A DNA stretch of 64,000 nucleotides, from the NCBI GenBank assembly GCA_016182605.1, contig JACPGE010000060.1:9807-73806 (forward strand). Direction: 5' to 3'. Made by a program: the position numbers and the translations under genes. Shown here piece after piece: positions 3 to 63,603 of the stretch (its first letter is position 1; every line of letters begins with the position of its first letter). Below the pieces are notes generated by a model. It ran no database searches, had not been told where the DNA came from, and saw only the letters and a program-made list of their open reading frames with translations. This stretch comes from Candidatus Hydrogenedentota bacterium (GTDB lineage: Bacteria > Hydrogenedentota > Hydrogenedentia > Hydrogenedentales > JAEUWI01).

Positions 3-425
3 AGTCTCCTCGCCAAAGGCTGGCCCGTTCCGCCCCACGACTTTGTGGTGGTCGGCGCATCCATACATCAGGCCCACTATTCGGAGGCCCTGAAAAAGTT
101 TCTCCGGCAGCATGAGGAATTGCTCCAGGCGGAGCGATCGGCTTTCTTCTCCGTGAGCCTCTCCGAAGCAGGCAGCCCGGAAAAGAAATCGGAAGCACGA
201 CGTTACATCGATTCGCTCTTAAAAGAGATCGGGTGGACGCCGTGCGCGGTCATCTCCCTGGCCGGAGCCTTGCGCTATCGCGACTACGGGTTCCTGAAAC
301 GCTGGATGCTCAAGAAGGTCATGGAAGAGTCTGGCGGCGAAACGGATACTTCGCGAAACCATGAATACACCGACTGGCAACAGGTGGAGACCTTCGCCCG
401 AAAGTGTGAACAGTTGGCGGCATAG
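3..425 (+). CDS. hemG: Protoporphyrinogen IX oxidase HemG (flavodoxin-like, menaquinone-dependent), 5'-partial
   Basis: Translation ...FVVVGASIHQAHYSEALKKF...SAFFSVSLS...CAVISLAGALRYRDYGFLKRWMLKKVMEESGGETDT...YTDWQQVETFARKCEQLAA is collinear with E. coli HemG (VVIGASIRYGHY..SAFYSVNL..CAVIAGALRYPRY..MSGGETDT..YTDWEQVANFAREI). The reading frame is open to the window edge, so the N-terminus lies outside the window. Confidence 0.8.
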   Translation, partial: SLLAKGWPVPPHDFVVVGASIHQAHYSEALKKFLRQHEELLQAERSAFFSVSLSEAGSPEKKSEARRYIDSLLKEIGWTPCAVISLAGALRYRDYGFLKRWMLKKVMEESGGETDTSRNHEYTDWQQVETFARKCEQLAA

Positions 426-2852: not shown

Positions 2853-2896
2853 AGGCGGTCATGCTATCCCAAGCGCTCCGGCGCCGGCAACGAAGT

Positions 2897-4291
2897 TCAA
2901 TTCAAAGTCGTGAAGATGGAGACCGATTCGGCCGCGCACGAAATCGGCAGCGTGCCGCCTGCTGGCAAGGTGATGCGTTCCTCCGGCTCCGGAAGGCCCG
3001 CTTCGTTGCTTCCTTGTGCGCCGTCCACGTAGCGAAAATGCTGCACCGGCCGGGACAAGCCCTCCGGCGCCTGCACCGCCACTTCCCGCGCTGCGCCACG
3101 GTTCACGCAGACGAGGCTCCAGTCCCCTTCCGAGACCGCCAGCAGCATCCGCATGTTTTCCGGTGCATTCACGCGGTATACGGCAGCCCCGGGGCGCACA
3201 TAGCGGCAAAGGAGCGACCACGGATAAAACCAGGGGCGCAACGTCATCCCCTGTTCCTGGTTGCGCCACAGGCCCCACGCGAAGTTGCGGTGGCCATTGT
3301 CGCTCAACATCCACGCGGATACGCCCGTCCACCCCGCGCTGACTGCCTGCACCGCATAGTCCGCCATATCGACGCCGTACGTGTAGCTGTCGATCGCGTC
3401 GGACACGGCGTGGTTGCCGCTCTGCGTCCACATGCCGGCTTCGCCCACGAGAAAGGGCTTCGACGCGGCCTTGGGATCGTGCGCAATGGCGTAGTCCCGC
3501 TGTTTGCGCCAGTAGGCCTCCATCGTGCCACTGCGCACCTCGTCCACCGAGGCATAGCGGTGGATGTCGTAGACGCCAAGCACATCCTGAAGTTCGTCCA
3601 CCGCCAGGCGGTGCCAGGGTTCGTCTTCGGCCGCTTGCGAGGTGTCCGATCCCGCGAGCGTGATCTGCGTGTTCAGTCCTCGCTGCTTGATTGCGGCCTC
3701 GACATTGAGCAGGCCCTGTTTCCAGCGCGCCCAGTCGTTCACTTCCCAGTTCGGCTCGTTCGTGCAAATGAAATAACGGATGCACGTGTAGCCCTTCGTG
3801 CGCACAAGATATTCCAGGTAGGTCCCCATCGCTTCGGCATAGACCGGATCTTCCACGCTCTTGATGCCCGGGCCGCGCGTCCAGTCTTTCTCGCCGCCCC
3901 AGTCGGTGAGAAACACCGTGACGCCCAGCTCTTGAAGCAGGTCCAGGCTGCGGTAAAGCTGCTGCATGCCCGGCGAGTCCCACGTGTACGTGCCATTGTC
4001 GTAGAGCCACCGCGTGAGCACCATCACCCGCATGATCCCCGGCCGCATCCAGCGCACTCGGGCGGCCTCTTGCGCATGCTGTGCCTCCGTGAGCGGATAG
4101 CTGAGGTAACCATTGGCGTCCCACTCGTTGCCAAAACCCAGGAAGGATTCGCATACCCGCTGTTCCGGCGCCAGCGACAGGGTGACCGTTTCCGCAGCGT
4201 GGCTGGCGCCCGCGTATAGCGCCATCAGGAATACGCCAAGCAGGGAATACGTGGCACGTCGCCGGGGAAGTGTGGGGGAGGGGTACATCAT
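2897..4291 (-). CDS. Secreted glycoside hydrolase, clan GH-A (GH5/GH30-like)
   Basis: N-terminal signal peptide LLGVFLMALYAGASHAAE. Candidate acid/base motif FICTNEPNWE (an NEP motif) and candidate nucleophile motif FLVGEAGMW. 464 aa. Tightly spaced between the two paralogous membrane proteins on the same strand. Confidence 0.6.
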   Translation of the reverse strand: MMYPSPTLPRRRATYSLLGVFLMALYAGASHAAETVTLSLAPEQRVCESFLGFGNEWDANGYLSYPLTEAQHAQEAARVRWMRPGIMRVMVLTRWLYDNGTYTWDSPGMQQLYRSLDLLQELGVTVFLTDWGGEKDWTRGPGIKSVEDPVYAEAMGTYLEYLVRTKGYTCIRYFICTNEPNWEVNDWARWKQGLLNVEAAIKQRGLNTQITLAGSDTSQAAEDEPWHRLAVDELQDVLGVYDIHRYASVDEVRSGTMEAYWRKQRDYAIAHDPKAASKPFLVGEAGMWTQSGNHAVSDAIDSYTYGVDMADYAVQAVSAGWTGVSAWMLSDNGHRNFAWGLWRNQEQGMTLRPWFYPWSLLCRYVRPGAAVYRVNAPENMRMLLAVSEGDWSLVCVNRGAAREVAVQAPEGLSRPVQHFRYVDGAQGSNEAGLPEPEERITLPAGGTLPISCAAESVSIFTTLN

Positions 4292-4325
4292 ATTACTTCC
4301 TGGTGCTGCCGTGCAGCGGCTGTCT

Positions 4326-5948
4326 TCAAGGCGGGGATGCGGAGGCCCCGTGATCCTGCACGGTTTGGCCCGCGGGGTTCAACCTGTACAAGACCAGCCG
4401 GCCCTGCACGGATTCGGGCGTGTCAAAATAGTGGATGGGTTCCAGCCGGCTCAGGAAGGCAGGACCGTCGTAACCGCCGCGCCGGACCTTCTGCGGATTG
4501 CTGAGCATCGTCTCGAAATCGCAGATATATGTGATCGGTACAGCGTCCACATAAGCCGCCAGCCGCATCTCCCGTGCGTAGGAGTAAATGTCGTTGTTGA
4601 CCAGGCCGTCGAGGTTCACAATATGCCCGCCCTCGAAATAGCCGAGTATGCCTGCATTCCAACTGCCCACGTGACCGGGCAGTTTCGCCTCCTTCAAGTA
4701 CTGCGCGGCATCGTACGCTGCCCGCTGGTAGGGCCATTCGGGATCGCTTCGCGGCGCGCTTCCCGCCAGCATCTGACGCGCGCAAAGCAGGCCCAGGATC
4801 GCGATCGCAGCCGTGCCCAGGGGAGTCCTCGTGCGCAGGTGTGCCGCGGGCAATGCAATCATCAGAAAAAGTGGCGCCACGAGATTCGCGGTGTACCACA
4901 GTTGCACCGACACGGGGTTGAGCGCGTAGAGCACGATGTAGCCCGCCGTGGAAAGTGCGCTGCCGGTCCACAGCAGCCGGGATGCATCGTCCCTCCAGGG
5001 TGTGGCCCCGGAATTTTCCGCCGTGCCCTGGCGGCGCTGGCGCACCCATGCCACTCCCACCCAAATAGAGATCGGAATCAACGCGCTGACCAGTGTCTCG
5101 GTCACAAGCGTCTTGTCCCCAAAGAGCGCGAATACCTGGTTCATGATCGGCCGTGCGGTGGGGCCGTACTGTTCCATCCAGAGCTGTTTCATCCGCGCGC
5201 TGGATTGCACCGCCTCGCCCGTGAAAGCGAAATTGTGCACGAACAGAAGCAGCACCCCGCTTGCCGCGCCCGCCACCCCGGAGGCCGCGCACAGCACCGG
5301 CTTCCATCCATGTTCGGCGCGCAGGCACAGCCACGCTGCGGCCAGGATCGACGCAGGCAACAGCCCAAAATCGGCCCGCGCGAGGCTCCCGGCCAGGCCG
5401 CAGCAAAACAGGGCCACTGCAAGGCGGCGATGCCGGCCGCCAGCGATGCCCCCGCTCAACATCAGGTACACGCCCGCCAGCGAAACCACCCAGCTCCACT
5501 CCATGGCCGATACCAGGTTCATGGAAACATTCCGCGACAGCATAAGGATCAGGAACAGCATGGCAGGCGCGATCCGGTTCGTGCGTATCGTGTAGCTGGT
5601 GCCAAGCGCCAGGGCAGGCAGGCCGGCCGCCACCGTAACGAGCATGCCCAGCAGCACAAAGGCCTCGGTCCCCGGCTGCAGCGCGGCGTAGAGTGCCGCG
5701 AGCACATAGGCATGCAAGGGATGAAAGCCGCTCGTGGTGCTCACGCCCGAGTCAAAGCTCCAGACGCCATCCACCGCAAAACTGCGGGCCAGGCCGAGAT
5801 AATAGAAGGCGTCGTCCGGCAGCAGCCCGATTCGCGAGAGCGGTGATCCGGCGAGATGCCCCAGTAGCGGGATCGCAACCGCCACCGCCCCAACGGCCAC
5901 CAAGCCGGGAACGGCCGCGCGCGATACGTACGTGCCTGAGCCTCTCAC
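4326..5948 (-). CDS. Large polytopic membrane protein, paralog of 219..2852 (GT-C-like fold suspected)
   Basis: The ORF track extends to 6572, but the upstream part is antisense to a well-supported GNAT gene and is low-complexity. The likely real start is a GTG at 5948, preceded by AAGGGA. Motif LLPDDAFYYLGLARSF, multiple TM helices, and a C-terminal soluble domain similar to the paralog. Confidence 0.5.
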   Translation of the reverse strand: MRGSGTYVSRAAVPGLVAVGAVAVAIPLLGHLAGSPLSRIGLLPDDAFYYLGLARSFAVDGVWSFDSGVSTTSGFHPLHAYVLAALYAALQPGTEAFVLLGMLVTVAAGLPALALGTSYTIRTNRIAPAMLFLILMLSRNVSMNLVSAMEWSWVVSLAGVYLMLSGGIAGGRHRRLAVALFCCGLAGSLARADFGLLPASILAAAWLCLRAEHGWKPVLCAASGVAGAASGVLLLFVHNFAFTGEAVQSSARMKQLWMEQYGPTARPIMNQVFALFGDKTLVTETLVSALIPISIWVGVAWVRQRRQGTAENSGATPWRDDASRLLWTGSALSTAGYIVLYALNPVSVQLWYTANLVAPLFLMIALPAAHLRTRTPLGTAAIAILGLLCARQMLAGSAPRSDPEWPYQRAAYDAAQYLKEAKLPGHVGSWNAGILGYFEGGHIVNLDGLVNNDIYSYAREMRLAAYVDAVPITYICDFETMLSNPQKVRRGGYDGPAFLSRLEPIHYFDTPESVQGRLVLYRLNPAGQTVQDHGASASPP

Positions 5949-6080
5949 TGCGTCCCTTCGATCCCCGGTCTGCCCCGAAATTTGTGTGGCATGATATATC
6001 AAGGCGCTGGCCCCCTTCGAGATCGCCTGCCGCCCGCGCTTCCCGTATACTGTCGCCAACCCAATGAGGCGCCCCCCGCA

Positions 6081-6575
6081 ATGACCTTCTCTTTCCTGCC
6101 CCCCGCCAGGCCGCTCGTCGACGGCGAATTGACCCTGCACTTGAAGTGTGCCGATTGGGAAATCTCCGACCGGATCCGCGTGCCGGTCTACCGCTTCATC
6201 ATGTTCCAGGAGGGCATCGAGGAGGAGGCCGGACACATCAACCTGCGCCTCGGAAACACGGACACCATCCTCCGCTATCAGGGCCACATCGGTTACGCCG
6301 TCCGCCCGCCGTTTCGAGGCCGGCGCTTTGCCGCCCGAAGCTGCCGCCTCGTGTTGCCCATCTTCCAGGAACACGGCTTCACCACCGTCTGGGCCACCTG
6401 TAACCCGGAGAACGTCGCCTCGCTCTGCTCCCTCGAACTGGCCGGCGCGGTCTTCGTGGAAGAAGTGGATATTCCGCAGAGCTATCCCGCCTATTGGCAG
6501 GGCGAGCAGGCCAAATTGCGTTACCGCTTCGATCTCTGGAGTCTGCTGCAGCAACCGAAGCAGGGATGGCAATGA
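6081..6575 (+). CDS. GNAT family N-acetyltransferase (RimJ/RimL-like)
   Basis: MTFSFLPPARPLVDGELTLH...GHIGYAVRPPFRGRRFAARSCRLVLPIFQEHGFTTVWATCNPENVASLCSLELAGAVFVEEV. Typical GNAT core (Q/RxxGxG/A-like motif FRGRRFAA). Confidence 0.75.
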   Translation: MTFSFLPPARPLVDGELTLHLKCADWEISDRIRVPVYRFIMFQEGIEEEAGHINLRLGNTDTILRYQGHIGYAVRPPFRGRRFAARSCRLVLPIFQEHGFTTVWATCNPENVASLCSLELAGAVFVEEVDIPQSYPAYWQGEQAKLRYRFDLWSLLQQPKQGWQ

Positions 6576-6759: not shown

Positions 6760-7458
6760 ATGATTACCCTGCGCAAATCCAATGAACGCGGCGGCGCCGA
6801 CCACGGTTGGCTGAAAACACGCCACACCTTCTCCTTCTCCACCTACTACGATCCCGCGCACATGGGGTTCCGTGCCCTGCGCGTCATGAACGAGGACTGG
6901 GTCGCGCCGAGCCAGGGTTTTGGAAAGCATCCCCACGACAACATGGAGATCCTCACCTACGTGCTCGAAGGCGCACTGAAGCACCAGGACAGCATGGGCA
7001 ATGGCGAGGTGGTGCACGCGGGCGAACTCCAGCGCATGAGCGCCGGCACCGGCATACACCATAGTGAGTTCAACGCCTCGCAGGAGGACCCCGTGCGCCT
7101 CTATCAGATCTGGCTGCTGCCCGGCCAGCGGGGCCTCGAACCGGGCTACGAACAGAAAGCCTTCAGCCCGGAAGACAAGAAAGGCAGGCTGCGCCTCGTC
7201 GCTTCACCCGCCGGAGAAGACGGCGCCCTGACCATTCATCAGGACGTCCGTATCTACCTCGCGGGACTGACCGCGGGAGAAAGCCTTGCGCACACGCTCC
7301 AGCCCGGCCGCCACGCCTGGGTGCAGGTCATCTCTGGCGCGGCGAGCGTAAACGGTCAGGCCCTGAAAGCCGGGGACGGCGCCGCGATTTCAGACGAAAC
7401 CACGCTGACGCTTGCGGGCCGCACCGACGCCGAGATCATGCTCTTTGACCTAGCCTGA
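6760..7458 (+). CDS. yhhW: Pirin-family protein (quercetin 2,3-dioxygenase YhhW-like)
   Basis: [84 protein letters not shown] is near-collinear with E. coli YhhW ([66 protein letters not shown]). Strong RBS AAGGAG 8 nt upstream. Confidence 0.9.
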   Translation: [232 protein letters not shown]

Positions 7459-7544
7459 TGCCGCCCCGCTTAGAACGGCGGACCAGGAGAAGTCCAACAA
7501 GATCGGTTTTGAGCACCAAGGGCACTATTCTGAACGGCGCTAAC

Positions 7545-7700
7545 ATGTTGCAGTCTCACTCCAATCACGCCGCTCGGCGGGCAACGGGCTACCATTTTGG
7601 CACGCCCAAACAGGCCTTCGCTCGCCGGGCAGCCTGCCACCATTTAGACACGCCACCCAAGTAGGCCTTCGCTCGCCGAGCGTAGGCATTCCGCGTCGAA
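7545..7700. repeat. Partial inverted copy of the interspersed repeat unit (module carrying 'aggccttcgctcgccg' twice)
   Basis: ctcactccaatcacgccgctcggcg...cccaagtaggccttcgctcgccgagcgtaggcattcc matches the reverse complement of 8455..8535 and the left part of 54790..54850. Confidence 0.7.
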
Positions 7701-8143
7701 GTACCTCGTCCCGCACCCCTCTACACACGGCCACACTTCATCACAAAATCCAGATCAATCCGGCTTTCGTAGCTCCCAATTTCAATTGGGAGTTCGAATC
7801 CCAAACCTCTGCGCGCTTACGTCGACGCATTCACGCACACACCCATTGTCATCTCGAACGCAGTGAGAGATCTCCCAAGGGGACTGTACCCGCCGGAAGG
7901 CAATAGGCCTACCCGGCGGAAAGATCTTCCACCGGCGGGGACTGTACCCGGGCCCCAATCACGCACACCCCGCAACCCCAACCACCCTGCTATCCCGAAC
8001 CCTTCCCTGTCATCTCGAACGCAGTGAGAGATCTCCCCGGGGAGCGCCATGCGCCGCGACGTGGACCACAAAAAGCTGGGGCGGTCTTATTTTCCAGGAA
8101 TGTCCGGTCCCTTGGGGCTCAGACATTCCTTATAGTAACCACG

Positions 8144-8213
8144 TTGGTTATCCACAGCCGACAGCAAGGCCACCTCGGTTGGCCTTCGTCGGCTGTCGGG
8201 TGTGGATAACCAA
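8144..8213. repeat. Long imperfect hairpin (about 30-bp stem, 8-nt loop)
   Basis: ttggttatccacagccgacagcaaggcc acctcggt tggccttcgtcggctgtcgggtgtggataaccaa. The outer 13 bp are perfectly complementary. Confidence 0.6.
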
Positions 8214-8368
8214 CCGGCTGGGGATGCAGTATTTCTGGCGTAACCCAAACTCGGTTTGGGCGGCGACGGCTCCTTCCGCGCCCCGCGCATCCCTCCAGCC
8301 GCAAGGACCGGCGCCCGATCCCATTCCCGCGTGTTCGACACCCGCGTCTCCGCCCGTTGATTCTCCAA

Positions 8369-8760
8369 GGAAAATTCGGGGCAGTAACCATTTTTTGCAG
8401 GATTCTCGCCCGGTTGACGGGGTGTAAGCTGGTACCTTGACGAGGAATGCCTATGCTCGGCGAGCGAAGGCCTACTTGGGTGGTGTCTAACAGGTAGCAC
8501 GCTGCTCGCCGAGCGGCGTGATTGGAGTGAGACCGCAAGTGTTAGCCCGCATATTTCACCACTTCAAGGTTTCTTGGCAACGAGTTCGACTTGGAAGATG
8601 GTGAAAAATGCTCAGCGTGGCGATGGTGCTGGCGTTCACCGGGCAGGCTAAATCACGGGCTGTTTGTTATTCCCAAGCTTGAAGTTGGGACAACGATATG
8701 TATGAATGGGTGTTACGACTACATCGTTTGGAGCCCGTGATTTATCCGAGTACACGGTCC
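8369..8760. repeat. Composite copy of the interspersed repeat family (minus orientation relative to the 54790 copy). It carries module R1, the 'gtgaaatatgcggg' module, the 50-bp core and its hairpin partner
   Basis: 8369..8540 is about 85% identical to 9249..9425 (direct). 8546..8662 is the reverse complement of 54905..55082. 8741..8759 (gagcccgtgatttatccg) pairs with 8644..8662 (ggctaaatcacgggctg) to form a 12-bp stem around a ~75-nt loop. Confidence 0.75.
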
Positions 8761-8876
8761 ATGCACCGTATTTCGACACAGGTACAACGCCGGCCGGGCA
8801 GGTGTGGCACGGACGCGGCTGCCAGCGATCCTCCACACTCACCGCTCCCACCCGTTTCGAAACAACATCCCTCATT

Positions 8877-8925
8877 CCCATCCGTGTGCATCGGTGTTCA
8901 TTCGTGGTTTGATTCCCTCAAGAAC
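8877..8925. repeat. Short direct repeat (copy 1 of 2; copy 2 at 9138..9185)
   Basis: cccatccgtgtgcatcggtgt.cat.cgtggtttgattccc is shared by both loci. Copy 1 is followed by an inverted repeat gttcattcgtggt...accacgaatgaac. Confidence 0.6.
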
Positions 8926-9248
8926 CAGGCCATCAATCAGACCACGAATGAACGCCAATACACGCGAATAAGACACAAGAACACGCCGGACCCCATGCCC
9001 ATCCTTCCCATTCCTCTTTCAGTGTGCTCCCTGTGTTCCGTGGTCGGCGAAGCGCTATCCTTAGTCCCCGCCCCGCCCCCGCGTTTCGCAAAGTCCATCC
9101 CGTCCATCAGGTCCATGTAGCCAGTCCACACGCCCCTCCCCATCCGTGTGCATCGGTGTCCATCCGTGGTTGATTCCCCCCAGTACCAACGTTTCGCCCG
9201 CCCTTCAACTCCTTTGCGACTTTGCGGCTTTGCGTGAGACAACTTTCC

Positions 9249-9425
9249 GGGAGAAATTGTGGACAGTAACCATTTTTGCAGGATTCTCTCCTGTTTGACG
9301 GGGTGTAGACAGGCGCTTCGACGTGGAATGCCTGCGCTCGCCGAGAGCGAAGGTCTACATTGGTGGCGTGCTTCATGGCAGCGCGCTGTTCGCCGAGCGG
9401 CGTAACCGGGGCGAGGCGGGAAAAG
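9249..9425. repeat. Second direct copy of repeat module R1
   Basis: gggagaaattgtggacagtaaccatttttgcaggattctc...gacggggtgta...ggaatgcct.cgctcg.cgag.gcgaagg.ctac aligns to 8369..8540. Confidence 0.7.
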
Positions 9426-9573
9426 TAAGCGCCATTCGGAGCGGTCCCCGGCAAAATCGATTGCACCATTTCAACCTTCGCAGACTTTTTCCGCTCTGGC
9501 CTTTGATCGGTGGACCGGGAGAAGCTACAGTAGTGTTGGAATCCTAAAGGCATTGCCAGGAGGCCGACACCCC

Positions 9574-10212
9574 ATGTATCTCTTCGCCGGAACCGCCATT
9601 CTTGCTGCACTGAGCCTGCTGGTCATCGTCAGCCTGATCTGGCGCTGGGCCTCCACGCGCCAGGCCCTGCCGTGCCCCTCCCAGTTCTCCTGGATGCTGG
9701 AAAACCCCCTCATGAACCAGATGGCGGGCGCCACCCGGCTCTTCGACTTCCTCGATCTGCGGCCCGGCATGACGCTTCTCGATGTGGGCTGTGGTCCGGG
9801 CCGCATGACGGTGCCCGGCGCGCTCCGCGTTGGCACGGAAGGCCGCGTTCTCGCGCTCGACATGCAGGAAGCCATGATCCGGAAGGCCCAGAACCGCGCA
9901 CAGCAGGCTGGCCTCACCAACATCGAGTTCATTCTGAAAGGCATGGGTGAGGGGGCGCTCCCAGCGGCATGCTGTGATCGCGCCATCCTGGTTACCGTCC
10001 TCGGCGAAATCCCCGATCGGGCCGCCGCCCTCCGTGGCATCCACACCGCCCTCCGCCCCGGCGGCCGCCTGTGCATTGCGGAGATCCTTCTCGATCCCCA
10101 CTACCAGCCCCGCGCCCGCGTCGAAGCCCTCGCACGCGAGACGGGCTTCACGCTCGGTCCGTATCAGGGCGGCTGGATCTCCTACACACAGATTCTGGAG
10201 AAGCCGGAATAG
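9574..10212 (+). CDS. Class I SAM-dependent methyltransferase with an N-terminal TM anchor
   Basis: RBS CAGGAGG 8 nt before the ATG at 9574. TM helix LFAGTAILAALSLLVIVSLIW. Motif I LLDVGCGPGRMT and the post-I acidic residue (LALDMQEAM). Motif IV-like DRAILVTVL. Confidence 0.75.
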   Translation: MYLFAGTAILAALSLLVIVSLIWRWASTRQALPCPSQFSWMLENPLMNQMAGATRLFDFLDLRPGMTLLDVGCGPGRMTVPGALRVGTEGRVLALDMQEAMIRKAQNRAQQAGLTNIEFILKGMGEGALPAACCDRAILVTVLGEIPDRAAALRGIHTALRPGGRLCIAEILLDPHYQPRARVEALARETGFTLGPYQGGWISYTQILEKPE

Positions 10213-10258
10213 CGGGTTTGGAATCGTTTGGCACGGACAACCCGAGACATGAGCATTT

Positions 10259-11512
10259 TCATGTGCCTTTATCACGAAGTAGACAGTTCTTGACCGAATA
10301 CCAGTCGGCTTGCTCAATGCCTTTGACGAAGGGAATCACTTTCTCGTCGCCAATGAGCCGTTCCCATTTCCTTCTTATGGCACCACGTGCAAGCTCTTCC
10401 ATACGTGAAGCATTGGGATCAACGACAGCCAGTCGATGAGATTCTGAAGAGCATAGCCAATCCAAGAGACGGGCGTTTATGACTTTGTCACCAAAACTGT
10501 ATCCGCATACAACTAGGTAGTCTGTCGTCAGCAGGTTCTGGTGAAACATGACTTGAAGTTCTGCGAAGATTCCATAGTTGTACTCCAGGAGCTTGTTGAA
10601 AGTTCCCATTAACATCAGTGGTCCTCTTACATGCCAGAGTTCGTGCCTTTCACCAAGTTCGTTCCTGGCGTGATAAGGATCGCGGTCCAATGATTTTCCA
10701 ACGCATTGGCTTTGCCATACGGGGCCTGGCGATGGGAACGAGTACCAGTCGACAGAGCCATGCAGTTTAAATATACGAACCTTTGCATTTGAGTGCGACA
10801 GGTCATTCCGGTTCCAGTGCAATACGTTTCCTCTGTGATCGCAGAAACCGTCCGAATACGGAACTCCGAAAGATCGAAAGAGTTCTTCAAGGATGGTGTC
10901 GTGATTCAAAGTGTAAATGTCGATCTTTGAGAGGGATCCATCGCGAGAGGCGGAGAGTAGGAACGACAATGCCCAAAGTCGGTTCGGAGTCTTCCACAAT
11001 TCGTTCTCCACGACATCGCGGATATAGGTGCATACCTCATTCAACAGTGGCGTGAGTTCCCAATTTTCATGCAGTTCACCAGGTTTATGCTGCAGAATTT
11101 TGAGAACAGCCGGCATCTTAAGCAGCTTTTCGTACAACGCCTGAACTGCGGGGTTCTCGTACTCGAAGTGATCGCTGTCTGAAAGCTGACGTGCACAAAA
11201 ATAGAGGTCTTCGTAATTCGTCTGATGCCGCCCAAAGGTCTTGTAGAACTCTGCTTCATTGCTCAGCGAGTGTCGGCCACAGTGAAAAAATCCGTCTACT
11301 TCGTCCTTTAGTATTTGGAGCAGCGCAGTGACTCGAGGAACATATACTTCCTGAGACTCAAAATCTTCGCGAACTCTATCATCAAATTCGTAGTTGCCGC
11401 AGGTGTGCCGTCGGTAGTTCACACCAGCCAGGACTGTGCTCGTCAGGCTCGCCGTTGAAGGCTTTCCAACGGGAATAGATGTTCCCGCGCCGCAGACGAT
11501 GCCAACTCTCAT
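10259..11512 (-). CDS. SIR2-like (sirtuin superfamily, SIR2_2-type) NAD-binding/NADase-like protein
   Basis: Nucleotide-binding loop VGIVCGAGTSIPVGKPS (compare sirtuin GAGIS.E.GIP). Asn motif IYTLNHDTILEE (compare TQNID). Catalytic-His motif KLHGSVDWY (compare sirtuin LHGS). Second Rossmann strand VVCGYSFGDKVIN. The gene GC (~48%) is well below its neighbours (~63%). Its start codon overlaps the stop of the upstream ATPase gene (ATGA). Confidence 0.75.
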   Translation of the reverse strand: MRVGIVCGAGTSIPVGKPSTASLTSTVLAGVNYRRHTCGNYEFDDRVREDFESQEVYVPRVTALLQILKDEVDGFFHCGRHSLSNEAEFYKTFGRHQTNYEDLYFCARQLSDSDHFEYENPAVQALYEKLLKMPAVLKILQHKPGELHENWELTPLLNEVCTYIRDVVENELWKTPNRLWALSFLLSASRDGSLSKIDIYTLNHDTILEELFRSFGVPYSDGFCDHRGNVLHWNRNDLSHSNAKVRIFKLHGSVDWYSFPSPGPVWQSQCVGKSLDRDPYHARNELGERHELWHVRGPLMLMGTFNKLLEYNYGIFAELQVMFHQNLLTTDYLVVCGYSFGDKVINARLLDWLCSSESHRLAVVDPNASRMEELARGAIRRKWERLIGDEKVIPFVKGIEQADWYSVKNCLLRDKGT

Positions 11513-12708
11513 GTGGTCGTTCCCAAAGTATCGTTTTTTCTGTTGGGTCGTACGCTAGAATCCATTGAGTAATTCAGGCCCGTCAATTCCCCACCCACGG
11601 GGACCGTGCTCACCTTGTCCCCCAGCGGATAGGCCTTGTCCCCCGGATAAACAACCCATAAATGCTCCAGTTCCAAATCCTCCAGCGCACTGCGCATCGA
11701 ACGCGTGATCCGCGGCGCGTCGGCGTACTTCACCTCCACGGCCCAGTTCTTGCCCCGATCCTGCCAGAAGAGATCAACCTCGGCGCCGGAGTGCGTGGCC
11801 CAGAAGTAGAGTTCTTCCTTCCGTTTGCCAAGCGCCCGCGTTACGGTCTCCAACGCAAAGCCTTCCCAGGACGCGCCGAGCTTGTTGTGGGTCGCGAGAT
11901 CTCCCGCTGTGCGCGCCGAGAGCAGGGTGTGAAAGAGCCCGGAATCGCGGAAGTAGATCTTGGGCCGTTTGACAAGGCGCTTCCCCACGTTCGCATGCCA
12001 CGGCTGTAACAGCCGGATCATAAAGGTCCCTTCGAGGACGTCCAGGTAGCGCCGGACCGTTGCGTCGGACACGCCGAAGGAACGGGCGAACTCGGAGTAG
12101 TTCATCAACTGGCCATGATAGTGACAGAGCATGGTCCAGAAGCGCCGCAACGCGGCCGCGGGAATATCAATGCCGAGTTGCGGGATGTCACGCTCCAGGA
12201 AGGTGGCCACATACTGCTCGCGCCACAAGTGGCTCGCCGCATCGCTGTCCGCTGTGTATGCGCGCGGCAGCCCGCCCCGCAACCAGAGGGACCGCCAATG
12301 TTCCGTGCCCACGTCTTCGAGCCGGAATCCCCCCAATTCATGGTAGGCAATGCGCCCCGCCAACGACTCTGCCGATTGCCGGATAAGATCCCGCGATGCA
12401 CTGCCCAAGATCAGGTAGCGCTGTCCAGGGCGGGTGTCGACGAGGTGGCGCAACAGGGGGAAGAGGTTGGGAGCCCGCTGTATTTCGTCGATGACGATCA
12501 GACCCGAAAGGGGCTCCAGAGCCAGTTGCGCCTGCTCCATCATGACCGCATCCCGAGGATTTTCCAGATCGAAGAAGTGCGCCGCCGGAAAAGCCCGTGC
12601 AAGACACGTTTTCCCGGCCTGACGCGGCCCCAAGAGAGCAGTCACGGGAAAGTGTTCCAATAAGGCACGAATGGCCTCTGTATCGGCATGCCGGGCTATC
12701 ATAGCCAC
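11509..12708 (-). CDS. P-loop ATPase fused to a PD-(D/E)xK nuclease-like C-terminal domain (AAA_14/DUF4143-like by motif recall)
   Basis: Walker A LLGPRQAGKTCLA and Walker B LIVIDEIQRAPNLF. The C-terminal region GAEVDLFWQDRGKNWAVEVKYADAP has a D...E.K arrangement typical of the restriction-endonuclease fold. 399 aa. Translationally coupled to the SIR2-like gene. Confidence 0.7.
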   Translation of the reverse strand: MAMIARHADTEAIRALLEHFPVTALLGPRQAGKTCLARAFPAAHFFDLENPRDAVMMEQAQLALEPLSGLIVIDEIQRAPNLFPLLRHLVDTRPGQRYLILGSASRDLIRQSAESLAGRIAYHELGGFRLEDVGTEHWRSLWLRGGLPRAYTADSDAASHLWREQYVATFLERDIPQLGIDIPAAALRRFWTMLCHYHGQLMNYSEFARSFGVSDATVRRYLDVLEGTFMIRLLQPWHANVGKRLVKRPKIYFRDSGLFHTLLSARTAGDLATHNKLGASWEGFALETVTRALGKRKEELYFWATHSGAEVDLFWQDRGKNWAVEVKYADAPRITRSMRSALEDLELEHLWVVYPGDKAYPLGDKVSTVPVGGELTGLNYSMDSSVRPNRKNDTLGTTT

Positions 12709-12780
12709 ATTTTAGCGCATTATCATTGAAAATTCAATGTGATGCGACGAAATTTCAATAATAAATCACTTGCGCCACAC

Positions 12781-13197
12781 TCAGCGGTGCCGAACCATAT
12801 AATCCATGGCCGCGTTCGCAAGTAGGCCGGAACGGGTCTGGCCATGGGACACTGCCCATTGGTCGACCGCTTCGAGTACGTATTCCGGAAGCGTGATGTT
12901 TATCCGTTGGGCACGGCCGGTCGGGAGTTCAATGCCGATTTGAGCAAGAACCACCCGGTGCCCTTCAGACTCGTAGTCGGCGATCAACTCCAGCAGCCCG
13001 GCTTCGTCGCCGCCCGGGGGAATGGGATCGCCGTCGTCCACCATGGATTGCACATGCAGGGAAAGGGCCTCGGCGGCACGGCGTTGTGCATCCTCGAGCG
13101 TAGGAGCCACCGTGACGCATCCGGGAAAATCGGGAAACGCGACATCGATCTGAACGGAACCCAAGCCTGCAAAGATAGCCTGGTAATATCGAATCAC
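12781..13197 (-). CDS. hicB: HicB-family antitoxin (type II TA)
   Basis: 138 aa. N-terminal HicB/UPF0150-like fold (MIRYYQAIFAGLGSVQIDVAFPDFPGCVTVAPTLEDAQRRAAEAL). C-terminal ribbon-helix-helix-like region (INITLPEYVLEAVDQWAVSHGQTRSGLLANAAM). Sits immediately downstream of hicA. Confidence 0.75.
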   Translation of the reverse strand: MIRYYQAIFAGLGSVQIDVAFPDFPGCVTVAPTLEDAQRRAAEALSLHVQSMVDDGDPIPPGGDEAGLLELIADYESEGHRVVLAQIGIELPTGRAQRINITLPEYVLEAVDQWAVSHGQTRSGLLANAAMDYMVRHR

Positions 13198-13209
13198 GCA
13201 GTGTACCTC

Positions 13210-13392
13210 CTACTTCAGTCCTGCCTGCCGCAGGATGCTGTTAACCGTGCCCTTCTTGAGATCCTTTGCGGGATGCGGAACGGTAACTTTGCCCGGTTTT
13301 ATTGGATGGTCGAAGTGATGGTGATCGCCTTTGACGGCTTTCAATTGCCAGCCATCGCCCTTGAGTATCTGGATGATCGTTCTACTGTCCAC
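13210..13392 (-). CDS. hicA: HicA-family toxin (mRNA interferase)
   Basis: 60 aa. MDSRTIIQILKGDGWQLKAVKGDHHHFDHPIKPGKVTVPHPAKDLKKGTVNSILRQAGLK matches the HicA consensus (..LEK.GW..VR.KGSHH.F.HP.KPG.VTVPHP.KDL..GT..SILKQAGL). Confidence 0.85.
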   Translation of the reverse strand: MDSRTIIQILKGDGWQLKAVKGDHHHFDHPIKPGKVTVPHPAKDLKKGTVNSILRQAGLK

Positions 13393-13581
13393 GGCCCGTT
13401 CCGGGTTGATCCATCCCTGAGATTATTATACACACCATACACACTCTCGGCAAGGGCTTTGGCAAGCAAGTGTAATGAAAGCAGGAACTCTTTGGCCCTA
13501 AAGACTACTCTGGAGGGCGCAGATTGGACACCGAGTCAGTGGCCCGCCCGGCGCAGGGGCATACGTCGAGATAATCACCCC

Positions 13582-15573
13582 TCACCGATCCCGCATGGCC
13601 AGCATCCGCAGTCCATTCGCCACCACAATCAAGGTGCTGCCCTCATGGCCGATAACGCCCAACGGCATCGGCAGGGTGAACAAAAAGGTGCCCGCCACGA
13701 GGAAAGCAATAACGGCGAGAGAAAAGGCCACGTTCATGCGGACGATGGTGTTGGCGCGGCGGCTCAGGCGCACCGCAAAGGCGATCTTGCGCAGGTCGTC
13801 GCCCATGAGCACCACATCCGCGCTCTCCAGGGTCACGTCCGTGCCGGCGCCTCCCATCGCCATGCCAACCGCCGCATGCGCAAGCGCCGGCGCGTCGTTC
13901 ACGCCATCACCCACCATGAGCACATTGCCCAGGTTCTTCTGCAGCCGGTGCAGCATTTCCACTTTCTCTTCCGGCAGCAGCGCGGCATGAAACTCATCGA
14001 CCCCGGCGGCCTTGGCAACGGTTTCCGCGACAGAGGGGTTGTCGCCAGTAAGCATCACGGTGCGCACGATGCCGAGGCGCTTGAGCGCGGCGATCGCTTC
14101 GGGTGCCTGCGGGCGCATGGTGTCCGCCACGGCAACGAGGCCGAGCCACCCGCCGTCTTCTTCGTGCTGCCCGATATTGCCCGTGCGGCCCAATTCACGG
14201 TGGAGCACAAGCACCGACTTGCCCTCTTTCTCCAGCCGTTGCTTTGTCTCGAGCAGGTGCGCGGGAATCCGTTCGCCATGCTCTTCGAAAAGGCGTTCCC
14301 CGCCGATCCAGACCAGGAAATTGTCCAGGGTCACCTGTACGCCGCGGCCCGGAAGGCTGATAAATTTGTGGACCTCCGGCAGCACGAGGCCGCGCTCTTC
14401 CGCCGCGCGCACGATGGCTTTGGCTATCGAATGCTCAGACTTCGATTCCATCGCCGCGGCCCAGGCCAGGAGCGTGTCTTCCGCCGGACTCTCGGCCAGG
14501 TCCGTGTTCACGACAATGTCGGTGAGCTTGGGCACACCCGTGGTAAGTGTGCCGGTTTTGTCGAAAGCCACGACCTTGATCTCCGCAAGGTTCTCAAGGT
14601 GGATACCGCCTTTGAAGAGGACCCCATTGCGCGCGGCTGCCGCTATCGCGGAGAGAATCGCCGCGGGCGTGGAGATGACCAGCGCGCAGGGTGAGGCCAC
14701 AACCAGCAACACCATCGCGCGGTAAAAGGTGGTGGTAAAATCGGCGCTGAAAACCAGCCACGGTACGAGTATGAAGAATACAGTGCCCACGGCCACCGTC
14801 CACGCGTAGTATCCTTCCACGTCATCGAGGAAGCGCTGGGTGCGCGCCTTCTCACCCTGTGCGGATTCCACCAGCTTGACGATGCGCGCGAGCGTCGAGT
14901 CTTCCGGCGCTCGTTGCGTCTCAATCTCCAAACTGCCCGCACCGTTGAGCGTGCCGGCAAAAACCTTGTCGCCGGGGCCCTTGTCGATGGGCTTGGATTC
15001 GCCCGTAATGCTGGCCTCGTTGATGTCGCTGAGTCCCGCACGGATTTTTCCGTCGGTGGGCGTCATCTCCCCGGGGCGCACCACCACCACATCGCCCACC
15101 TGCACCGATTCGAGGGGTACTTTCTGCTCTTTGCCGTCACGCAGAACGTTGGCGTCCTTCGGGCGGAGTTTGAGCAGGCCTTCAATAGCGCGCCGTGACC
15201 GGCCCATCGCATACGTTTGAAGCGTGTTGGAAAGGGAGAAGAGGAATAGGAGCGTGGCCCCTTCGTGCCATTGATCGATGCTGGCCGCGCCAACCGCGGC
15301 GATAATCATCAGGAAGTCGACCCCAAGTTTCCGGTTCCGAAGATCGCCCAGCGTATCCAACAGCCCAAACCATCCGCCTGCGGCGTAGGCACTGACGTTG
15401 AAAAGAAGGATAAGCGGTGTGGCGAGTTCGAGGCGTTCCGCGCCCAGACTGAGGAAAATGCACGCAAGGGTAATGGCGGTGAAAGTCAGTTCCCAGCGGC
15501 GTCGCAGGCTGTCGGCATCGCGATCCGGCGCCTGGCTTCGTGCAGGGGCTTCGACAGGGGAGACTGTGCTCAT
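13582..15573 (-). CDS. Heavy-metal translocating P-type ATPase, P1B subgroup with an SPC transmembrane motif (P1B-4-like; Co/Ni/Zn-type), no N-terminal metal-binding domain
   Basis: DKTGTLT phosphorylation motif. TGES actuator motif (ITGESKP). ASPCALVIS in the TM helix. MVGDGVNDAPAL hinge. Start set at the ATG at 15573 (MSTVSPV...), because the longer ORF would overlap miaA. Confidence 0.8.
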   Translation of the reverse strand: MSTVSPVEAPARSQAPDRDADSLRRRWELTFTAITLACIFLSLGAERLELATPLILLFNVSAYAAGGWFGLLDTLGDLRNRKLGVDFLMIIAAVGAASIDQWHEGATLLFLFSLSNTLQTYAMGRSRRAIEGLLKLRPKDANVLRDGKEQKVPLESVQVGDVVVVRPGEMTPTDGKIRAGLSDINEASITGESKPIDKGPGDKVFAGTLNGAGSLEIETQRAPEDSTLARIVKLVESAQGEKARTQRFLDDVEGYYAWTVAVGTVFFILVPWLVFSADFTTTFYRAMVLLVVASPCALVISTPAAILSAIAAAARNGVLFKGGIHLENLAEIKVVAFDKTGTLTTGVPKLTDIVVNTDLAESPAEDTLLAWAAAMESKSEHSIAKAIVRAAEERGLVLPEVHKFISLPGRGVQVTLDNFLVWIGGERLFEEHGERIPAHLLETKQRLEKEGKSVLVLHRELGRTGNIGQHEEDGGWLGLVAVADTMRPQAPEAIAALKRLGIVRTVMLTGDNPSVAETVAKAAGVDEFHAALLPEEKVEMLHRLQKNLGNVLMVGDGVNDAPALAHAAVGMAMGGAGTDVTLESADVVLMGDDLRKIAFAVRLSRRANTIVRMNVAFSLAVIAFLVAGTFLFTLPMPLGVIGHEGSTLIVVANGLRMLAMRDR

Positions 15574-15686
15574 GGAGTAGCGCTCTTTGCTAGCCGATGG
15601 AATTGCCGGCGCATTGATTGTAGACCCGTAGACGGTTCGCTTCAATTGTATCCGTGTCCAAATACTTTGACAGAGGGCCCGCGACC

Positions 15687-16658
15687 CTATTCCCGGACGC
15701 GCCAAGATTCGGGAATCTGCCGCCAGACTGCGTCGAGTTGGGATACGGGCGTGGGGTGGATCGTCGTGTCGATCCACTGCACGCGGGGATCGTTGCGAAA
15801 CCAGGTGAGTTGGCGCTTCGCATAGCGCCGGTGGTGGAGCTTGGTGGCCTCGATGGCCGTTTCGAGAGGCTGCTCGCCATGCAACGCGGAAGCGATCTCC
15901 CGGTAGCCCAGGGCCTTGAGGCGATCAATCTGGGGACCATAACCCAGGTCAAGCAGGCGTTGCACTTCCGTCACCCAGCCTGCCGCTATCATGGCGTCGA
16001 CCCGCGCGTTGATACGCGCATACAGCACCTCGCGATCCGGATAATGCAATGCAAATTGCACGCTCTCCAACGGCTCCAACAGCGCCTGGTGCGCCGCGTG
16101 CAGTTCGGAAAAGGGCCGGCCAGAGCATTCGAAAACTTCGAGCGCGCGCACCACCCGCACCGAGTCGTTGGAACTCGTGAGCTGCGCCGCATACGCGGGA
16201 TCGACCGCCCGGAGCCGCGCAAACAGGGCCTCGTTGCCCTCTTCCCGGGCCTCGGCGCGAAGCCGTGCGCGCACATGCTCGTCGCGCCCTGGACCATCGA
16301 AAATGCCGTCCAGAAGTGCAGAAACATAGAGCCCCGATCCCCCCGCGGCCACGGGTACGCGTCCCTGCGCATGAAGTTGTTCCGCGATGCTGCGTGCCCG
16401 CGCCTCGAAGTCCCCGGCGTTCATGGACTCATCCGGATCGATGATGCTCACCAGGTGATGGGGCACACGGGTCCGCTCTTCCAAGGTGGGCGCCGCGGTG
16501 CCTATCTCCATGCCGCGATAACACTGCATGGAATCCACGGAGAGAATCTCCGAGCCGAGCCGCTCCGCGAGGCCAATGGCAAGCGCCGTCTTCCCGGAAC
16601 CGGTGGGTCCCACGACGGCAACAATGCGGGGACGCCCTGAATCGGCAGACAGCGTCAC
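15687..16658 (-). CDS. miaA: tRNA dimethylallyltransferase
   Basis: P-loop IVAVVGPTGSGKTALAI. SVDSMQCYRGMEIGTAAP, DPAYAAQL and LHHRRYAKRQLTWFRN are all collinear with MiaA. Confidence 0.9.
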   Translation of the reverse strand: MTLSADSGRPRIVAVVGPTGSGKTALAIGLAERLGSEILSVDSMQCYRGMEIGTAAPTLEERTRVPHHLVSIIDPDESMNAGDFEARARSIAEQLHAQGRVPVAAGGSGLYVSALLDGIFDGPGRDEHVRARLRAEAREEGNEALFARLRAVDPAYAAQLTSSNDSVRVVRALEVFECSGRPFSELHAAHQALLEPLESVQFALHYPDREVLYARINARVDAMIAAGWVTEVQRLLDLGYGPQIDRLKALGYREIASALHGEQPLETAIEATKLHHRRYAKRQLTWFRNDPRVQWIDTTIHPTPVSQLDAVWRQIPESWRVRE

Positions 16659-33591: not shown

Positions 33592-34779
33592 TTGGCTTGG
33601 GATCTAAGAAATCAAAAAGCCAACTCTTGGATAGAGGTGAAAGCCGCCGTGCCGCAGACTAAGATTGTATCCGGCGCCGTTCACGGCCTTCGAAGATTCG
33701 GAAGCTTTTGGAAGGCATGTGCCGCACTCTTGCTGGGATCCGTGCTGGCCTTGCTCCTTGTCCTCGCGATCGACTTCGCATGCGGATTCATCTATCAGCG
33801 CAAACCGCCCGTTTTCGCTGAAAAGTCGGTTTCCGGAAGGCCGGTGAGTCTGCCAGACGGCAATCTGGGCTTCCACCTGGTTCCCAACGCGTCTGAACTC
33901 GTGAATCGGACTGCCGGCGCTCAAACCATATACAGCGTTACCTACACGACGGACGCCTGTGGCCGGCGCGTCGTGCCAGCGGCGGCGCATGGCGGCCAAA
34001 GCCAATTCCTGATCTTTTTCGGCTGCTCGTTTACATTTGGGGCTGGGCTGGGAGACAACGATACGCTCCCCAATCAAGTTGCGGCGCTTGCACCGGACTA
34101 CCATGTCTATAACTATGCGTGCGGCGGCTACGGCCCCGCTCAGATGCTCGCCATACTGGAATCTGGCGTCCTCCCCAAAGAGATTCAGGAACCGGCTGGA
34201 ATCGCAGTATATGTACTGCGCCCGGGTCACGTAGCGCGGGTGGTCGGTTCCATGCGGACGACGGCATCGTGGGCACGGCATTTCCCCTATTACGCCATCG
34301 AGGACGATGGCGCCCTGTCGCGGCGGGGAAATTTCGATGAGGACCGCCGGTTTACGAATTGGTATTACAACCTGGCGGGTAAAAGCGGCATCTTGAATTT
34401 GCTCTCCCTCGACTTGCCGCTTTGGTATCGCGAATCCCATTACGCACTCACAGCGCGAGTTCTCATTGAGTCGCGGGACCTCTTCTTGAAGTCATTCAAG
34501 GACGGAAAATTTTATGTCGTTTTTTATCCCGCATGGGACGACTACCGGCTCGTGTATACGCGCATTCTTCCGTATCTCGAAAAAGCAGGCGTCACGGTCT
34601 TGAACTATAACCAGTTGCTCGAGCCAGAACACGACGCCTATTTTCTGCATCCCGTGTATGACCGGCACCCCTCCGCAGTTGCCCATAAACAAGTCGCCGC
34701 GCAACTCGCTCAAGACCTTGACGTGATTCCCCCGCAACAAAGCGAATCGAACGGGTCCGTGACGCCAGACAGCCCGTGA
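33592..34779 (+). CDS. Membrane-anchored SGNH/GDSL-like hydrolase or acyltransferase-accessory-like protein
   Basis: N-terminal TM helix ACAALLLGSVLALLLVLAI. Motif QFLIFFGCSFTFGAG resembles the GDS(L) block. 395 aa. GC lower than the neighbouring genes. Confidence 0.45.
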   Translation: MAWDLRNQKANSWIEVKAAVPQTKIVSGAVHGLRRFGSFWKACAALLLGSVLALLLVLAIDFACGFIYQRKPPVFAEKSVSGRPVSLPDGNLGFHLVPNASELVNRTAGAQTIYSVTYTTDACGRRVVPAAAHGGQSQFLIFFGCSFTFGAGLGDNDTLPNQVAALAPDYHVYNYACGGYGPAQMLAILESGVLPKEIQEPAGIAVYVLRPGHVARVVGSMRTTASWARHFPYYAIEDDGALSRRGNFDEDRRFTNWYYNLAGKSGILNLLSLDLPLWYRESHYALTARVLIESRDLFLKSFKDGKFYVVFYPAWDDYRLVYTRILPYLEKAGVTVLNYNQLLEPEHDAYFLHPVYDRHPSAVAHKQVAAQLAQDLDVIPPQQSESNGSVTPDSP

Positions 34780-34822
34780 TTTAACCTGCCCGCCGAACGC
34801 CAGCACCATCCTCACGCCGAGT
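34770..34822. repeat. Partial copy of the 50-bp repeat core (family 'cagcccgtgatttaacctgcccggtgaacgccagcaccatcgtcacgctga')
   Basis: cagcccgtgatttaacctgcccgccgaacgccagcaccatcctcacgccgag. Same orientation and ~90% identity to 55030..55082. Confidence 0.7.
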
Positions 34823-34857: not shown

Positions 34858-34960
34858 CCGGATCATCTCCGCCTGACGCACTTCCTGGCGCCCGGAATCG
34901 GCCCAGAAGGGTATTCGTGCGGATAGATAAAGCGCCGGATACTGGGATGGAAGCGCCGCC
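34858..34960 (-). pseudogene. Decayed duplicate of the 3' terminus of pncB
   Basis: About 85% nucleotide identity to 37305..37408 (the 3' end of pncB). The minus-strand translation ...YPALYLSARIPFWADSGRQEVRQAEMIRG parallels the PncB C-terminus ...YPHEYPSGLDSGLHEARQAEMIRMKRGK but lacks the stop codon. Confidence 0.7.
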
Positions 34961-63489: not shown

Positions 63490-63603
63490 GCCGGAGCGAG
63501 CCAATCGCGGGCTGTCCGGCAATTCCACTGTGCATGTTGTGGCAATGACAGACGAGAAAAGGGGTTATGACACAAATACGTGGAGCCCGTGATTTATCCG
63601 GGC
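63490..63603. repeat. Interspersed repeat copy. Right (inverted) member of the near-identical pair with 52389..52500
   Basis: The reverse complement of 63531..63603 equals 52389..52460 with 1 mismatch. Confidence 0.8.

Follow-up and report, generated by a model that had tools for sequence, protein, structure and literature searches.

A probable mosaic of independent toxin-antitoxin and defence-type modules beside mutL-miaA in a Candidatus Hydrogenedentes genome

We analysed a stretch of 64,000 nucleotides (nt) from an uncultured bacterium assigned to Candidatus Hydrogenedentota (GenBank assembly GCA_016182605.1, contig JACPGE010000060.1, positions 9,807 to 73,806), here called the window, and within it the 6 kb between a pirin gene and the gene of a heavy-metal ATPase (window positions 7459-13581). 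This segment holds a field of repeats, a methyltransferase gene, a gene for a SIR2 protein, a gene for an ATPase with a DUF4143 domain, and a hicA-hicB toxin-antitoxin pair. An earlier note, made from the sequence alone, had taken all of it to be accessory and to form a single islet. Our analysis indicates that the segment is probably a mosaic and not one island, in which three independent accessory modules (hicAB, the DUF4143 ATPase and SIR2) arrived separately. All three belong to accessory families of defence or toxin-antitoxin type, and the families of the ATPase and of SIR2 occur elsewhere in unrelated contexts.

Results

Gene content of the segment

Listing of open reading frames (ORFs) and domain scans upheld the gene positions given in the earlier note with the exception of two start codons: the starts of the DUF4143 ATPase and the methyltransferase were moved, while the other genes stay as placed. 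The segment and its flanks comprise the following features.

6760-7458, plus strand: pirin (Pfam Pirin plus Pirin_C_2)
7459-9573, no strand: repeat field without a credible gene; the ORFs there have no Pfam match, low GC content at third codon positions (GC3) and low codon adaptation index (CAI)/codon scores
9574-10212, plus strand: class-I S-adenosylmethionine (SAM)-dependent methyltransferase, 212 amino acids (aa) (Pfam Methyltransf_31/25/11)
10259-11512, minus strand: SIR2_2 protein, 417 aa (Pfam SIR2_2, 5e-10)
11509-12702, minus strand: AAA_14+DUF4143 ATPase, 397 aa (Pfam AAA_14, 7.9e-20; DUF4143, 5.7e-46)
11512-11565, minus strand: low-GC stretch of 18 codons and a stop that lengthens the ATPase ORF at its 3′ end, encoding MDSSVRPNRKNDTLGTTT (from the alignment; GC 0.45)
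12709-12737, minus strand: promoter-like site upstream of the ATPase (consensus match only; GC of the spacer 0.33)
12781-13197, minus strand: hicB antitoxin (Pfam HicB_lk_antitox PF15919, 4.7e-26; RHH_5, 1e-10)
13210-13392, minus strand: hicA toxin, 60 aa (Pfam HicA_toxin PF07927, 5.8e-22, profile positions 2-58 of 58)
13425-13453, minus strand: promoter-like site upstream of hicA (TTGCCG-17-TATAAT, 10/12; consensus match only)
13582-15777, minus strand: P1B heavy-metal ATPase, longest ORF, ending at 13582 (TIGR01525, 1.6e-180)

The DUF4143 ATPase probably starts at the ATG at 12702, which gives a protein of 397 aa beginning MIARH, as in its homologues. For the methyltransferase the probable start is the ATG at 9574, preceded by AGGAGG 11 nt upstream, and the resulting 212 aa match the call on a short-read contig of the same genome (L001). 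Past the metal ATPase lie miaA and then mutL, and the eight genes from mutL through SIR2 are all on the minus strand. The methyltransferase gene is convergent with SIR2, and 46 nt separate the two stops.

Composition divides the segment

We compared CAI and GC3 of each gene with those of 19 long genes of the window (CAI 0.716 ± 0.038, GC3 0.763 ± 0.027), and on these two measures the segment splits into four classes. SIR2 is the strongest outlier in the window (CAI z = -5.9; GC3 0.526, z = -8.8). hicA and hicB are moderately atypical (CAI z = -2.8, GC3 z = -4.6), the DUF4143 ATPase falls inside the host range (CAI z = -1.6; GC3 0.74, z = -1.0) and the methyltransferase is native-like and above average (CAI z = +1.3; GC3 0.82, z = +2.0). 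On the flanks, pirin is native-like, with positive z values for both CAI and GC3, and the metal ATPase is average (CAI z 0.1, GC3 z -0.1). Overall GC is 0.49 for SIR2, 0.525 for hicA, 0.60 for hicB and 0.62-0.65 for the flanking genes, in agreement with the patchy GC reported earlier. In a sliding profile of 100 nt the low-GC tract spans ~10200-11570 and so covers SIR2 with ~50 nt on either side. Deviation in CAI and GC3 is limited to SIR2 and hicAB, unlike that of a single recent 6-kb islet.

The DUF4143 ATPase and its junction with SIR2

The DUF4143 ATPase matches two PADLOC models, PDC-S01 PDLC04790 (6.2e-82) and PDLC04789 (3.8e-44). Its motifs are intact (Walker A GPRQAGKT, Walker B VIDE and the nuclease-type D312...E325-x-K327); across the alignment of homologues GKT34, D74/E75, D312 and K327 are invariant and E325 nearly so. 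DUF4143 (COG1373) counts among the listed members of the PD-(D/E)XK superfamily (PMC3424549). PDC systems were predicted because they occur within loci of BREX, DISARM and type I restriction-modification (bioRxiv 10.1101/2024.01.29.577857), and PDC-S01, described as a fusion of an ATPase with a PD-(D/E)XK-type domain, is reported to be the fourth most common “defence” in prokaryotes, with validation pending (PMC12988326). We refer to it as a very common candidate defence, one that is predicted only. The window protein is like PDC-S01 in its strong hidden Markov model (HMM) match, two-domain architecture, intact motifs and stand-alone occurrence of the gene in relatives; it is unlike PDC-S01 in that the window copy adds a C-terminal tail of 18 residues and overlaps the downstream SIR2 gene.

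That tail marks the junction. The typical ATPase of this family has ~379 residues, and nine of 11 aligned homologues terminate at W-x-Y-x; these nine lack the 18 further residues of the window protein, and the other two carry unrelated, shorter tails. The tail ends in the SIR2 ATG, so the two genes overlap by 4 nt (ATGA). Since the low-GC tract begins where the homologous ATPases end, the window ATPase has a low-GC tail that reads into the SIR2 start. The break in composition coincides with the usual ATPase stop, and the simplest reading is that SIR2 was placed directly behind the ATPase, which removed the stop and left the overlap as a by-product. A consensus scan of the junction turned up neither promoter-like nor terminator-like sites; the promoter-like sites that it placed are upstream of hicA, in the AT-rich spacer preceding the ATPase and within the ATPase gene itself. 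With neither kind of site between them, SIR2 is probably co-transcribed with the ATPase.

At least 8000 homologues of the ATPase were found at E ≤ 1e-30, the best of them 73-79% identical. Viral contigs nearly lack the family, with 2 loci. A structure model of the ATPase was of poor quality (predicted local distance difference test, pLDDT, 47) and unusable. As a separate observation, this subfamily is more conserved than the housekeeping protein MiaA (73-79% vs ~65% identity for the best matches), which is odd for a supposed defence gene found in unrelated neighbourhoods; the pattern suggests either recent spread or strong constraint.

The SIR2 protein and its family

The SIR2 protein carries the motifs GAGxS (G8, G10 and S12), TLNHD (D205 invariant) and KLHGS (H251 invariant), all conserved in its family. 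An AlphaFold (AF2) model built on the family alignment (pLDDT 90.4; predicted template modelling score, pTM, 0.90) was compared with solved structures using Foldseek. The best matches (8wld, 8sub and 8w9l; E 5e-12 to 1e-9, TM 0.5-0.6) are all SIR2 subunits of SIR2-HerA (Nezha), followed by weaker fold matches to SPARSA (4e-5), ThsA (1.2e-4), DSR2 (1.4e-4), and KomC and sirtuins (~1e-4). At the sequence level 8w9l was the sole PDB match (7.6e-8), and identity to the solved SIR2-HerA SIR2 subunits is 13-16%. PADLOC SIR2 models match partially, the best being Aga_SIR2 (2.3e-18), with Dsr2 at 0.0047.

Characterised defence SIR2 proteins hydrolyse NAD+ and stop the growth of infected cells, and by analogy the window protein is predicted to consume or hydrolyse NAD+. 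The SIR2 subunit of SIR2-HerA forms an auto-inhibited dodecamer on its own and becomes active when it binds HerA (PMC11472057). The window locus resembles that system in the size of its SIR2 protein (417 aa vs ~380-400 aa), the GAGxS, N/D and His motifs, the nearest fold and the presence of an ATPase in the operon. It differs in that the partner is AAA_14+DUF4143, without a HerA-type Pfam match, and in that no ATPase is conserved next to SIR2 in the close family, whereas distant homologues have HerA directly downstream. Judged by motifs and fold the protein would pass as a SIR2-HerA SIR2 subunit, but no HerA (DUF87/FtsK-HerA) adjoins it. Three other systems were considered and set aside. Thoeris combines a SIR2-SLOG ThsA with a TIR ThsB, and SIR2_2 is the sole domain detected in the 417 aa, with no TIR gene at 7459-13581. 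DSR1 and DSR2 have ~1000 aa or more, with an N-terminal SIR2 domain and a long C-terminal sensor, for which the protein is too short. SPARSA pairs SIR2-APAZ with a short pAgo, and no such neighbour is present.

Among 1.84 billion representatives searched exhaustively, 425 cluster representatives reached E ≤ 1e-30, so that at 50% identity the family has at least 425 clusters. Among the best 150 of the 425, nearly all are single-domain proteins of ~270-450 aa. Such stand-alone SIR2 proteins form a moderately large family, to which the window protein belongs. Phage records gave no match, and plasmid records gave distant matches only (24-30% identity). The closest homologue, 60% identical, lies on another Hydrogenedentes contig from the same metagenome. 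DNA similarity between the two is confined to the coding region and the flanks are not shared; with similarity limited in this way, a mobile unit is not definable.

GC of the SIR2 gene was below that of its surroundings in 9/9 loci compared (L086, L087, L089, L090, L093, L095, L097, L099 and L107), by 1 to 16 points, in hosts of 39%-63% GC. Low GC across such hosts fits a frequently transferred gene, and because it recurs in every locus, GC alone gives no date for the insertion. For the same reason the region could be long-resident chromosome that has seen no recent acquisition, in which SIR2 and hicAB are old, their low GC is kept by family constraints and the gene order is lineage-specific. 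The full amelioration of the ATPase and methyltransferase genes and the lack of mobility genes would agree with such a history, but the GC step at the gene borders is very sharp, the normal 3′ end of the ATPase is disrupted, and each family is patchily distributed in variable contexts, so that we regard it as unlikely.

The ATPase-SIR2 pairing does not recur

The neighbourhoods of about 84 SIR2 loci were examined, among them 80 metagenomic loci found via the family profile and three contexts of the closest homologues. A DUF4143 ATPase was present in one (L155), more than 3 kb from SIR2, and adjoined SIR2 in none. Conversely, ATPase homologues at 74-77% identity stand alone in 3/3 unrelated contexts (L170, L173 and L175), with SIR2 adjoining in 0/3. 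As far as seen, these counts make the pairing unique to this genome. What the earlier note called an ATPase-SIR2 cassette is real as an adjacency with a 4-nt overlap and fails as a recurrent unit.

All-against-all clustering identified HerA as one recurrent neighbour of SIR2, directly downstream in 10 loci and with the most distant homologues only. A short-Argonaute-like upstream neighbour in two further distant loci (L150 and L166) is a resemblance without domain-scan confirmation. Among these loci, no neighbour recurs in the close family (profile score >200 bits). Clear matches among its upstream genes are to PIN and to a DUF6036 nucleotidyltransferase, and weaker, sub-threshold matches near SIR2 are to TIR and HEPN; other upstream neighbours include a C-terminal Lon fragment, an REase-type nuclease domain and hemerythrin. 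Neighbours of the SIR2 homologues are often of toxin-antitoxin or defence type. Loci L104 and L108 each have a gene with a PIN domain immediately upstream of SIR2. The orphan clade of ~400-aa SIR2 proteins without a fixed partner could be an undescribed defence module, acting solo or pluggable to different upstream partners.

These counts bear on the possibility that the ATPase and SIR2 are a genuine two-gene defence system of the SIR2-HerA kind, in which the ATPase-nuclease would be the sensor or activator of an auto-inhibited NADase and the extended ATPase C-terminus a contact surface. The ATGA overlap, the common strand, the junction free of promoter-like and terminator-like sites and the intact catalytic motifs of both proteins would suit such a system, as would the nearest solved structures, in which SIR2 needs its ATPase partner (PMC11472057). 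Set against this are the absence of the pairing from every other locus counted above, the 60%-identical SIR2 homologue without an adjoining ATPase, the sharp difference in GC3 (0.74 for the ATPase vs 0.53 for SIR2) and the low-GC tail, which is missing in 9/11 homologues and resembles read-through into inserted DNA. Taken together these make a two-gene system improbable. A related proposal is that a PDC-S01-type ATPase-nuclease captured a SIR2-HerA-class effector, giving a nascent two-gene system with the DUF4143 ATPase in the place of HerA as the NADase activator. The arguments for this HerA-like partnership are confined to the gene overlap and the fold resemblance, while non-recurrence and the composition break weigh against it, and we consider it distinctly unlikely.

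The hicA-hicB pair

hicA precedes hicB on the same strand, as in the earlier note, and the hicB start, preceded by GGAGG, lies 12 nt past the hicA stop. The pair comprises a full-length HicA toxin domain and an adjoining HicB with a ribbon-helix-helix DNA-binding domain. HicA toxins cleave mRNA, and HicB neutralises HicA and represses the operon via its ribbon-helix-helix domain. The toxin-first order, the 12-nt spacer and the separate promoter-like site are those of HicAB type II toxin-antitoxin systems, from which the pair shows no notable difference; activity is predicted from these sequence features. On an unrelated metagenomic contig (L098, 259-2068), a SIR2 homologue adjoins hicA-hicB, echoing the arrangement in the window.

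The methyltransferase and the repeat field

The methyltransferase has a class-I domain and an N-terminus that forms a hydrophobic helix; with its orientation convergent to SIR2, this agrees with the earlier description of a membrane-anchored SAM methyltransferase. Its native-like codon usage argues against the place it had been given among the accessory genes. Matches to ArsM, UbiE and PADLOC mad2 span the generic domain only. That it is part of a restriction-modification or MADS system, or is ArsM, was rejected on that ground, the scores being far under the family cut-offs. We saw no link between the methyltransferase and metal-ATPase loci.

The field that separates pirin from the methyltransferase is crowded with direct and inverted repeats, and it has several shorter repeats and hairpins (8143-8214 and 8880-8969). 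Its main elements are as follows.

7529-7705, minus strand (inverted): copy A of a ~180-nt repeat, without the first ~57 nt and with an internal 48-nt duplication
8372-8546, plus strand: copy B of the ~180-nt repeat (repeat listing/self-comparison)
9254-9440, plus strand: copy C of the ~180-nt repeat, 79% identical to B
8609-8748, no strand: ~140-nt dispersed repeat (window self-BLAST)
7476-7492, plus strand: left copy of the 17-nt direct repeat CGGYGGACCRGGAGAAG, 18 nt past the pirin stop
9508-9524, plus strand: right copy of CGGYGGACCRGGAGAAG, ~50 nt before the methyltransferase ATG

The ~140-nt repeat recurs in the window at the intergenic positions 54944-55083, 52392-52528 and 34766-34821 (partial), with a related partial copy near 63503-63602. 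The field is an accumulation of dispersed intergenic repeats that belong to this genome itself, and no tie was found between it and the defence-type genes. Further dispersed intergenic copies were seen at 34858-34959 and 37305-37407, the copies being 75-93% identical, and the genome appears rich in elements like repetitive extragenic palindromic (REP) sequences or miniature inverted-repeat transposable elements (MITEs). Units of ~140-190 nt with internal inverted repeats, clustered in both orientations and recurring at intergenic sites, are typical of such REP or bacterial interspersed mosaic element (BIME) sequences and MITEs; unlike these, the repeats have no identified transposase partner, clean terminal inverted repeats or target-site duplications. 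Two short-read contigs of the same genome, one from each side, end inside the field, at window positions 7678 (L180) and 9136 (L001), as expected from multi-copy repeats.

The earlier description of gene-free structured repeats thus stands in part: the field is gene-free and repeat-rich and holds some hairpins, but the 175-nt copy B folds no better than shuffled sequences (z = -0.86), and we rejected the repeat unit as a structured RNA or DNA. A ~95-nt hairpin at 8877-8972 (arms 8880-8914 and 8935-8969) has its left arm repeated at 9139-9188; its match to a microRNA family is at chance level (33.9 bits against a gathering score of 104), and the Rfam matches in the field are likewise chance microRNA-type hits far under their gathering scores. 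A CRISPR-like or tandem array was also discarded, the candidates being merely a 48-nt unit in 2.2 copies and short, low-score repeats. CGGYGGACCRGGAGAAG occurs only twice in the 64 kb, at the edges of the field, with a chance expectation of 0.08, although it was noticed post hoc. Because its position does not line up exactly with the inverted outer copies of the repeat we do not read it as a target-site duplication; it could be an insertion relic or a shared regulatory motif. Membership of the methyltransferase and the repeat field in the accessory set finds no support, given native codon usage in the one and the genome's own repeats in the other.

Mobility markers, relatives and flanking genes

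No integrase or transposase domain was detected in the main ORFs scanned (219-23335), in agreement with the earlier note. The tRNA-fragment-like sequence reported in that note could not be recovered: ARAGORN found 0 tRNA genes in the whole window, and at the pirin edge (7440-8000) there was no tRNA-type Rfam match at E ≤ 10. Three features of an integrative island are therefore missing, with no integrase or recombinase, no tRNA or tmRNA target or fragment, and no uniformly atypical composition. The segment resembles defence and genomic islands in its clustered toxin-antitoxin and defence-type genes and patchy composition, and SIR2 neighbours elsewhere are similar in type. It departs from them in having no integrase, tRNA target or repeats flanking the block, and in consisting of three modules of which one is strongly atypical and one merely a candidate.

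The window MiaA is identical to a protein from a metagenome-assembled genome (MAG) of Candidatus Hydrogenedentes, and the next best MiaA is ~65% identical. In three relatives at that distance the mutL-miaA pair is kept with its 4-nt overlap, and both sides are otherwise different, with no metal ATPase or pirin gene nearby. Since synteny is lost equally on both sides of mutL-miaA, its loss is uninformative for this site. Exact-protein look-ups aimed at strain variants yielded nothing beyond pieces of this one genome, from two runs, with the breaks at repeats.

The metal ATPase has its best matches in species-representative genomes (one scan) at 53-55% identity, all in Chloroflexota MAGs, and may be horizontally acquired or lineage-specific. 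Its longest ORF overlaps miaA by 91 nt and has no exact-protein record; the true start is probably ~15573 (663 aa, as on contig L001). Upstream of pirin lie three large successive ORFs without a Pfam match (219-5948, minus strand; 877, 464 and ~540 aa), and the longest form of the ORF at 4326-6572 overlaps an opposite-strand GNAT gene (5982-6575). The ORF at 19564-22317 (minus strand, 917 aa) encodes N-terminal ECF-type sigma-70 regions 2 and 4 followed by a ~700-aa C-terminal extension with a CarboxypepD_reg-like domain, an unusually long sigma-factor fusion.

The view of the earlier note, that the whole 6 kb from the repeat field to hicA is one islet acquired horizontally between pirin and the metal ATPase, is very unlikely: the accessory-type gene cluster, the patchy GC, the altered synteny downstream of miaA in 3/3 relatives and the bracketing of the repeat field by CGGYGGACCRGGAGAAG favour it, but the segment has four composition classes with a host-like methyltransferase and ATPase, no integrase, transposase, tRNA or tRNA fragment marks a boundary, the direct repeat encloses the 2-kb repeat field only and leaves the genes outside, the repeats belong to the genome's own dispersed families, and synteny with the relatives breaks down upstream of mutL as well, so that the variability carries no information specific to this site. 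The associated claim of defence co-localisation survives for the three accessory-type elements, hicAB, the PDC-S01 candidate and SIR2, and not for a joint islet.

Discussion

We propose that, downstream of mutL-miaA, this Candidatus Hydrogenedentes genome has gathered three independent modules on one strand. The first is a hicA-hicB toxin-antitoxin pair with its own promoter-like site. The second is a single-gene AAA+ ATPase fused to a winged helix-turn-helix/PD-(D/E)XK-type DUF4143 region, a candidate PDC-S01, and the third a stand-alone SIR2 protein of ~400 aa whose predicted hydrolysis of NAD+ would stop the growth of an infected cell. SIR2, compositionally the most foreign, was probably the last to arrive. 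A low-GC tract of ~1.3 kb, holding little beyond the SIR2 gene, would have landed behind the ATPase, whose normal stop was thereby lost; the ORF of the ATPase would then read 18 extra codons into the new DNA and end in the ATGA overlap. SIR2 would probably be transcribed from the ATPase promoter, and its translation may be coupled to that of the ATPase. The data show the gene content, the motifs, the composition classes, the fold similarity and the non-recurrence of the pairing; the order of acquisition, the co-transcription and the NADase and defence activities are inferred.

Several points weigh against this proposal. The SIR2 family is low in GC in every host checked, possibly a lasting family bias and not a sign of recent arrival. 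The 4-nt overlap, the common strand and the junction free of promoter-like and terminator-like sites also suit a true two-gene operon. hicA and hicB are short, which makes their codon statistics noisy, and the nearest relatives (~65% in MiaA) are too far away for gene presence or absence to be compared at the site.

The cluster seems to be ordinary piecemeal accretion of the kind seen in bacterial defence regions, built from common modules. As it stands the region is a small, typical accumulation of toxin-antitoxin and defence-type genes in an uncultured bacterium, and in itself matters little. Its junction is a clean natural example of an effector gene spliced behind an existing gene and placed under that gene's expression signals. 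The conservation of the PDC-S01 subfamily across unrelated contexts merits the attention of those working on that candidate. The stand-alone SIR2 family has the SIR2-HerA fold without HerA, which makes solo activity of these proteins a testable question for immunity by NAD+ depletion.

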